From NCBI RefSeq assembly GCF_003334815.1, contig NZ_QOWO01000052.1: 22,598 bases of DNA; one strand, given 5' to 3'. This document shows, piece by piece, positions 22,232 through 22,598 of this stretch (the first letter of the stretch is position 1; every line of letters begins with the position of its first letter). Source of the DNA: Escherichia coli. Its GTDB lineage: Bacteria > Pseudomonadota > Gammaproteobacteria > Enterobacterales > Enterobacteriaceae. Below the pieces are notes generated by a model. That model did no database searches. It saw only the letters and a list, made by a program, of their open reading frames with translations, and had not been told where the DNA came from. Position numbers and translations under genes: made by a program.

Positions 22232-22461
22232 TTACGGTTTACCAACAAAGATGGACGCACTTTTGGGGATTAGAAACTCATCGAGAGAACGCCCGGCTTT
22301 CAATGCTTCACCAATCGGTTTTGGCGCACGCCCACGACCAGACCAGTATTTCGTTTCACCATTTTCTTCAAATTGATACTTGGGTGGCGCGTAAGCGCTC
22401 CGTCTGTAACGTCTTGTGATGGTTGTCCTGTCTGGCAACAATCGCGTCCATCTATATTGAT
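22232..22461 (-). pseudogene. H-NS-family C-terminal DNA-binding domain fragment (N-terminal oligomerisation domain absent)
   Basis: Translation ...YAPPKYQFEENGETKYWSGRGRAPKPIGEALKAGRSLDEFLI matches the H-NS C-terminal domain (YVDENGETKTWTGQGRTP..I...GKSLDDFLI); no ATG (the ORF-track start is TTG) and the frame runs upstream into an IS terminal repeat at 22462. Confidence 0.6.
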
Positions 22462-22598
22462 TGAACCGCCCCGGGTTTCCTGGAGAGTGTTTTATCTGTG
22501 AACTCAGGCTGCCAGATCATCGTTTCCGATGGAAGCATAATAAGCTTTTTCTGCTTCTGCCGGAGGAGTATGGCCCAGCCTTTCCAGCAATCGTCGAT
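22462..22598 (-). mobile_element. Terminal part of an IS3-family (IS629-like) insertion sequence, continuing beyond the window
   Basis: Terminal sequence tgaaccgccccgggtttcctggagag resembles the IS629/IS3411-group terminal IR (TGAACCGCCCCGGG...) from memory; minus-strand frame ending at 22504 reads ...RRLLERLGHTPPAEAEKAYYASIGNDDLAA, compatible with a DDE transposase C-terminus. Confidence 0.5.

Follow-up and report, generated by a model that had tools for sequence, protein, structure and literature searches.

A probably non-functional 3′ remnant of an hns-family gene bordering an IS66-bounded rearrangement on an Escherichia coli IncX1 plasmid

Introduction

One end of a 22,598-nucleotide stretch of Escherichia coli DNA (contig NZ_QOWO01000052.1 of assembly GCF_003334815.1; hereafter, the window) holds a fragment of an H-NS-family gene next to insertion sequence (IS) DNA. 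This raises the questions of which element truncated the gene and whether the part left behind retains a function. The original prediction, read from the letters of the window, attributed the truncation to an IS3-family insertion and weighed two fates for the fragment: a dead remnant or a dominant-negative anti-silencer. Here we describe the fragment as, in all likelihood, the functionless 3′ end of a plasmid hns-family gene, left behind where an IS66 element bounds a rearrangement.

Results

The window carries an IncX1 backbone, which confirms the supposition that the sequence is plasmid-borne. Two tandem replication-initiator genes (1781–3483; 279 and 280 aa) are part of the IncX1 replicon, and a resolvase gene (7891–8535) and partition genes lie near it. 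An IS110-family transposase ORF (10384–11337; 317 aa, TTG start) is located between an Abi-like gene (9142–10086) and a fimbrial operon. This ORF aligned only from position 81 of the 343 in the profile and may be N-terminally truncated or mis-started. The fimbrial operon (12766–16976) encodes a PapB-like regulator, a PapD-like chaperone, an 818-aa usher and a 179-aa putative subunit with no Pfam match. Directly downstream on the IncX1 backbone is the gene for a 1370-aa serine-protease autotransporter (SPATE; 17258–21370) with Peptidase_S6 and autotransporter barrel domains; the nearest plasmid relatives come from an E. coli isolated from a cat and from a plasmid of Salmonella Newport. The chaperone-usher fimbriae, SPATE autotransporter, ykgJ and hns together make up a virulence module on the IncX1 plasmid. 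The ykgJ-family cysteine-cluster gene (21543–22193, plus strand; PF03692) is convergent with hns, of which it is a conserved neighbour on IncX-type plasmids.

The reading frame that contains the hns fragment encodes 69 aa, and exactly the same ORF is present on 20 E. coli contigs at NCBI, auto-annotated as ‘H-NS histone family protein’. We read 10 of these 20 contigs (loci L006–L015, hereafter the siblings). All 10 have the gene order fimbrial operon, SPATE, ykgJ and hns′, and one of them (L006) is identical to the window over the 1421 bp that run inward from position 22461.

The hns-derived part of the frame occupies positions 22232–22390 on the minus strand and comprises codons 97–148 and a TAA stop (22232–22234). 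A tblastn search aligned 22390–22235 (minus strand) with residues 97–148 of the 148-aa protein WP_126773204.1 (51 of 52 residues identical, 98%; E = 1.8e-31). The rest of the window had no further match to this protein, and residues 1–96 (oligomerisation domain and linker) were not found in the window by the same search. DNA alignment placed the boundary at the same position, with similarity to the intact hns genes of pISHS7_3 and the Salmonella plasmid pSNE1 vanishing past 22390. The prediction of a C-terminal remnant is thus borne out by tblastn and Pfam, but its length was overestimated at about 60 residues: 52 are of H-NS origin.

These 52 residues cover the DNA-binding domain of the family. 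The remnant matches the full Histone_HNS model (PF00816, positions 1–38; E = 2.4e-14). Furthermore, it aligns from its first H-NS-derived residue with the solved C-terminal domains of StpA (2LRX), H-NS (1HNR and 2L93) and Ler (2LEV), which means that the domain is complete. The SGRGRAP motif of the remnant (within YWSGRGRAP, RGR-type) aligns with TGQGRTP of the StpA and H-NS structures. The remnant therefore keeps a complete folded C-terminal DNA-binding domain with the RGR variant of the Q/RGR motif characteristic of the family. The N-terminal oligomerisation domain (PF22470) is carried by the full-length hns copies of the siblings and is missing from the 69-aa product, which has PF00816 alone. 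The intact gene with promoter, ribosome-binding site and canonical start that would be expected of a family member is likewise missing.

The 3′ end of the gene also retains its intrinsic terminator (22190–22225, minus strand), predicted by RNA folding as a hairpin with an 11-bp interrupted stem followed by UUUUUCUUU (-15 kcal/mol, z = -2.9). The hairpin sits between the convergent ykgJ and hns genes and is conserved in pISHS7_3 and pSNE1.

The remnant is identical to that of L006 (159/159 bp) and differs from pISHS7_3 at 8 of the same 159 bp, with 2 mismatches in the adjacent 832 bp (L001 4001–4991 aligned with window 21400–22390). Six of the eight changes are synonymous, and at seven of the eight sites pISHS7_3 copy 1 has the base of the second (backbone) hns copy. 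We rejected pseudogene decay as the source of the cluster on these two grounds. The pattern points instead to allele mosaicism, or to gene conversion of one hns copy by the other.

The sequence that abuts the remnant is the left end of an IS66-family, ISCro1-like element (22391–22461, plus strand), recognized by its identity to intact elements. These 71 bp comprise a terminal inverted repeat and leader and open with GTAAGCGCTCCG, whose first bases, GTAAGCG, typify the start of IS66-family terminal inverted repeats (PMC11946415). They are 100% identical to L003 3502–3572 and L004 3501–3571, which lie on other E. coli plasmids directly upstream of an annotated IS66 tnpA, and PGAP names the related copies ‘IS66-like element ISCro1 family’. 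In intact elements the sequence reads on as GGACACGAACG to the ATG of tnpA. In the window, TGAACCGCCCCGGG replaces that stretch at 22462 and cuts the element off 11 bp short of the tnpA start codon. The window itself holds 71 bp only, and the tnpA-tnpB-tnpC set of the family follows the same end in L006, L008, L009 and L015, encoding TnpA (NF038385, E = 8e-88), TnpB_IS66 and DDE_Tnp_IS66 proteins.

From 22462 to 22598 (minus strand), the window consists of the right end of an IS3-family, IS629/IS1203-type element with the terminus of its right inverted repeat (IRR) at 22462. At this position, tgaaccgccccggg matches the terminal inverted repeat of an IS3-family element exactly. It starts with TG, as is typical of the family, and orfB ends just inside it: the window contains the last 31 orfB codons, with a TGA stop at 22505–22507 (minus strand), 43 bp inside the element end. 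Thousands of E. coli genomes contain annotated IS3-family transposase ends that match the 137 bp at 100% identity, and copies at 96–97% carry the annotation ‘IS3-like element IS1203 family’. The copy in L007 (3002–4310; 1309 bp) is complete: it ends on the same bases, has matching terminal repeats and encodes an HTH_Tnp_1 protein and an rve transposase. Both IS names follow the PGAP annotation of related copies; IS629/IS1203 is the probable designation of the IS3-family element. The IS3-family repeat predicted at 22462 is therefore real, but H-NS sequence does not reach it, as 71 bp of IS66 end lie between. The structure is nested, with hns′ followed by the 71-bp IS66 left end and then by the IS629/IS1203 right end.

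The siblings allowed us to order these events. The hns′/IS66 junction and the 71 bp are identical in all 10 loci, where the IS66 tnpA is intact (NF038385, E = 8e-88) and IS1203 is absent from the insertion site seen in the window. Thus, the truncation of hns is older than the IS3-family insertion and common to the plasmid lineage. Judging from these junctions, hns was truncated by an IS66-family element and the IS3-family insertion is secondary and later. The original prediction was correct in that the gene is cut to its DNA-binding domain at an IS boundary, but it named the wrong family of truncating element.

Elsewhere in the same IS66 element, six siblings (L007 and L010–L014) have an IS629/IS1203 right end at IS66 position ~1194 in the orientation seen in the window, placing such ends at two different positions across the lineage. 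In L007 this truncated right end (8721–8857) is followed, as in L010–L014, by PhoX and phytase-like genes and a two-partner secretion pair. The arrangement in the window could possibly derive from the L007 type by adjacent deletion. An independent IS1203 insertion appears at least as likely, since the two IS ends have 2 mismatches over 137 positions.

The far side of the IS66 element is best seen in L006, where the element spans 2728 bp (7324–10051) between the flanks TGTTATGG and GCGCCACC. These flanks form no 8-bp target-site duplication, which a simple insertion of an IS66-family element would be expected to leave. We read its lack as the probable mark of a rearrangement or deletion junction and not as evidence against family membership. 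The element also looks like a mosaic, because it has no single-piece full-length match among complete E. coli genomes. Beyond it, 7.3 kb of flank match the pISHS7_3 IncX1 backbone at 99.9% identity, through topB, hha, hns, NACHT and onward. The N-terminal half of the gene had been expected across the IS with a target-site duplication, an expectation that fails in the siblings on both counts. Coding sequence for the H-NS N-terminus was found neither in the window (tblastn) nor within 10 kb past the far end of IS66 in the 10 sibling loci. The sole other hns near the sibling IS66 is a separate full-length backbone copy with 93% protein identity to pISHS7_3 copy 1. We also looked in PLSDB for the predicted reciprocal junction (hns codons ~70–96, GCGCCACC and an IS66 right end of the L006 type) and found no record that spans it.

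The second copy bears on the proposal that the plasmid has lost an H-NS paralogue, which is doubtful. A complete, full-length hha-hns pair by topB is kept in 3 of the 10 sibling loci (L006, L008 and L009) and in pISHS7_3. The module hns itself is intact (148 aa) in pISHS7_3, a close relative. Judged from the siblings and pISHS7_3, the copy that was lost would be that of the acquired SPATE/ykgJ module.

At the corresponding backbone site, the plasmid pISHS7_3 also has the right part of this IS66. The element there ends on the left in another IS66-family sequence (GTAAGCGCATCATTT), which takes the place of hha and stops 7 bp short of the ATG of the module hns that is intact in this plasmid. A one-step adjacent deletion from such an ancestor was considered as the source of the junction in the window and rejected, as the two IS66 left ends differ. 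The pISHS7_3 element (L001 5280–5990) appears to combine two IS66-family members, and a Tn3-family (TnAs1) segment interrupts it.

Can the truncated gene still be expressed? Its frame is open upstream to a TGA at 22517–22519 and contains no ATG, as originally predicted, and no GTG. There is no fusion to orfB, whose own frame is a different one and ends at 22505–22507. The sole start of the 69-aa ORF (22232–22441, minus strand) is a TTG inside the IS66 sequence, and a GGA upstream is the only plausible, and weak, Shine-Dalgarno sequence. Translation from the TTG would add 17 IS66-derived residues (MLPDRTTITRRYRRSAY; 22391–22441, minus strand) to the 52 of H-NS. These residues are Arg-rich and stand in place of the basic H-NS linker, probably by coincidence. 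No sigma-70-like site matching at least 9 of 12 positions was found on the minus strand of 22232–22598, and a permissive promoter scan of the same strand upstream of the ORF returned 8/12 matches only, with spacers of 15 or 19 nt.

We consider it improbable, though the best placed of the alternatives, that the 69-aa ORF is expressed, with read-through from IS1203 orfAB as one conceivable route, and that its lone RGR-type DNA-binding domain and Arg-rich tail compete with H-NS as an anti-silencer. The open frame of 69 codons, the complete DNA-binding domain with an intact Q/RGR-type motif and the retained hns terminator are all in keeping with a working gene and speak against a dead remnant. So does the orientation of IS1203 orfAB, whose direction is that of the ORF and makes read-through transcription possible; no minus-strand terminator is predicted between orfB and the ORF. 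The ORF is also unaltered: neither the window nor any of the 10 sibling contigs read has a mutation that would inactivate it, a conservation for which recent common ancestry may suffice. However, no promoter was found, the TTG start has a weak Shine-Dalgarno sequence and the product lacks the oligomerisation domain on which both H-NS silencing and Ler anti-silencing depend. In the siblings, an antisense IS66 tnpA lies upstream of the ORF in place of IS1203. Read-through, if it occurs, would therefore be confined to the window, and the ORF is older than this route. Isolated H-NS C-terminal domains bind DNA only weakly, which also counts against an anti-silencing role. Less probable still is the narrower scenario in which read-through from the newly inserted IS1203 and translation from the TTG would yield a monomeric RGR-type binder of AT-rich DNA that locally opposes H-NS silencing of the SPATE/fimbrial module. 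The absence of a usable promoter from the scans, the poor start and the missing oligomerisation domain agree with the dead remnant that the original prediction had favored, and the remnant very probably does nothing.

An assembly artefact, in which the hns gene of the real plasmid is intact and the contig is chimeric at a repeated IS sequence, is very unlikely. A short-read contig would be expected to end as the window does, 137 bp into a high-copy IS; we take this end to be a contig break at the repeat. Furthermore, the IS66/IS1203 junction (22461/22462) has no match in PLSDB or in the complete E. coli RefSeq genomes, and the sequence past 22598 was not recovered from PLSDB or complete E. coli genomes. 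However, the hns′/IS66 junction that defines the truncation is repeated base for base in 10 independent assemblies, and independent support is lacking solely for the secondary IS66/IS1203 junction. A direct insertion of the IS3-family element into hns, splitting the gene and leaving its N-terminal half across the IS, would account for the IS3-family repeat at 22462 and the open frame that passes through it, but in our assessment it is already refuted by the 71-bp IS66-family end that separates hns from the IS3 end, by the identical truncation with no IS3 element at the site in 10 sibling contigs and by the end of H-NS homology at 22390.

Discussion

The preferred reading is that an IS66-mediated rearrangement truncated hns. 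The junctions and the missing duplication are observed directly, and from these we infer the steps by which the module was joined to its backbone. The SPATE/ykgJ/hns module would have been joined to the IncX1 backbone via IS66-family elements, either because copies recombined with one another or through a deletion mediated by an IS. In the lineage of the window, the junction would have formed inside hns, with loss of the 5′ 288 bp (the 5′ two-thirds) and of the upstream hha. Loss of the 5′ part through an IS66-mediated deletion or recombination between IS66 copies, as opposed to a simple insertion, is consistent with the flanks in L006. On the plasmid of the window, an IS629/IS1203-type element would then have entered 71 bp inside the IS66 left end and parted this end from tnpA; beyond the IS629/IS1203 element, IS66 would be predicted to resume at GGACACGAACGATG (tnpA). 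These events would have stripped the remnant of its promoter, ribosome-binding site, start codon and oligomerisation domain and left the TTG-initiated hybrid frame of 69 aa. The remnant most likely persists simply by not yet having been removed; it also carries the terminator shared with ykgJ.

The hns remnant is ordinary mobile-element debris, and its 69-aa ORF is already in the public annotation. Gene stumps bounded by IS elements are routine on the virulence plasmids of enterobacteria. The automatic assignment of the ORF to the H-NS family should be accompanied by a pseudogene flag. The nested hns′/IS66/IS1203 junctions are useful as lineage markers for this group of SPATE-bearing IncX1 plasmids, and they point to a virulence module that was probably joined to its backbone via IS66-family elements and not by simple insertion.

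Comparison with known systems

The two mobile elements at the locus are recognizable members of their families. Like IS66-family (ISCro1-like) elements, the sequence next to hns has the GTAAGCG repeat and matches, at 100% over 71 bp, the left end of carriers of tnpA-tnpB-tnpC. Unlike them, it is reduced in the window to those 71 contiguous bp, and the sibling element has no 8-bp duplication. The element beyond it shares with IS629/IS1203 the terminal repeat TGAACCGCCCCGGG and the C-terminus of orfB, at 100% identity to annotated copies, and differs in that just its last 137 bp are within the window; its opposite end, needed to see the 3–4 bp target-site duplication of the family, falls outside.

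Among natural relatives of H-NS, the short proteins H-NST and Ler are the closest parallels to a truncated product. H-NST antagonizes H-NS as an N-terminal oligomerisation domain without a DNA-binding domain, and Ler forms its own dimers and oligomers; H-NS silencing and Ler anti-silencing both need oligomers (PMC7074111). The 69-aa ORF resembles these proteins in encoding a short product related to one H-NS domain, and its RGR motif is similar to that of Ler. However, H-NST corresponds to the opposite half of H-NS and Ler has an N-terminal oligomerisation region of its own, whereas the ORF has neither and carries no expression signals. In particular, it does not encode the N-terminal dimerisation domain for heteromers with H-NS that defines H-NST-type antagonists (PMC7074111). 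A bare C-terminal domain thus misfits the known mechanisms of anti-silencing, and the dominant-negative role once proposed for the fragment points in the wrong direction: the known truncated antagonist keeps the half that is missing here.

The closest match is the 148-aa hns of IncX-type plasmids (WP_126773204.1, pISHS7_3), which is arranged downstream of hha and convergent with ykgJ. The remnant differs from this gene in missing residues 1–96, the promoter, the ribosome-binding site and the upstream hha, but it is alike in its last 52 residues (98% identity), its ykgJ neighbour, its terminator and its RGR-type motif.
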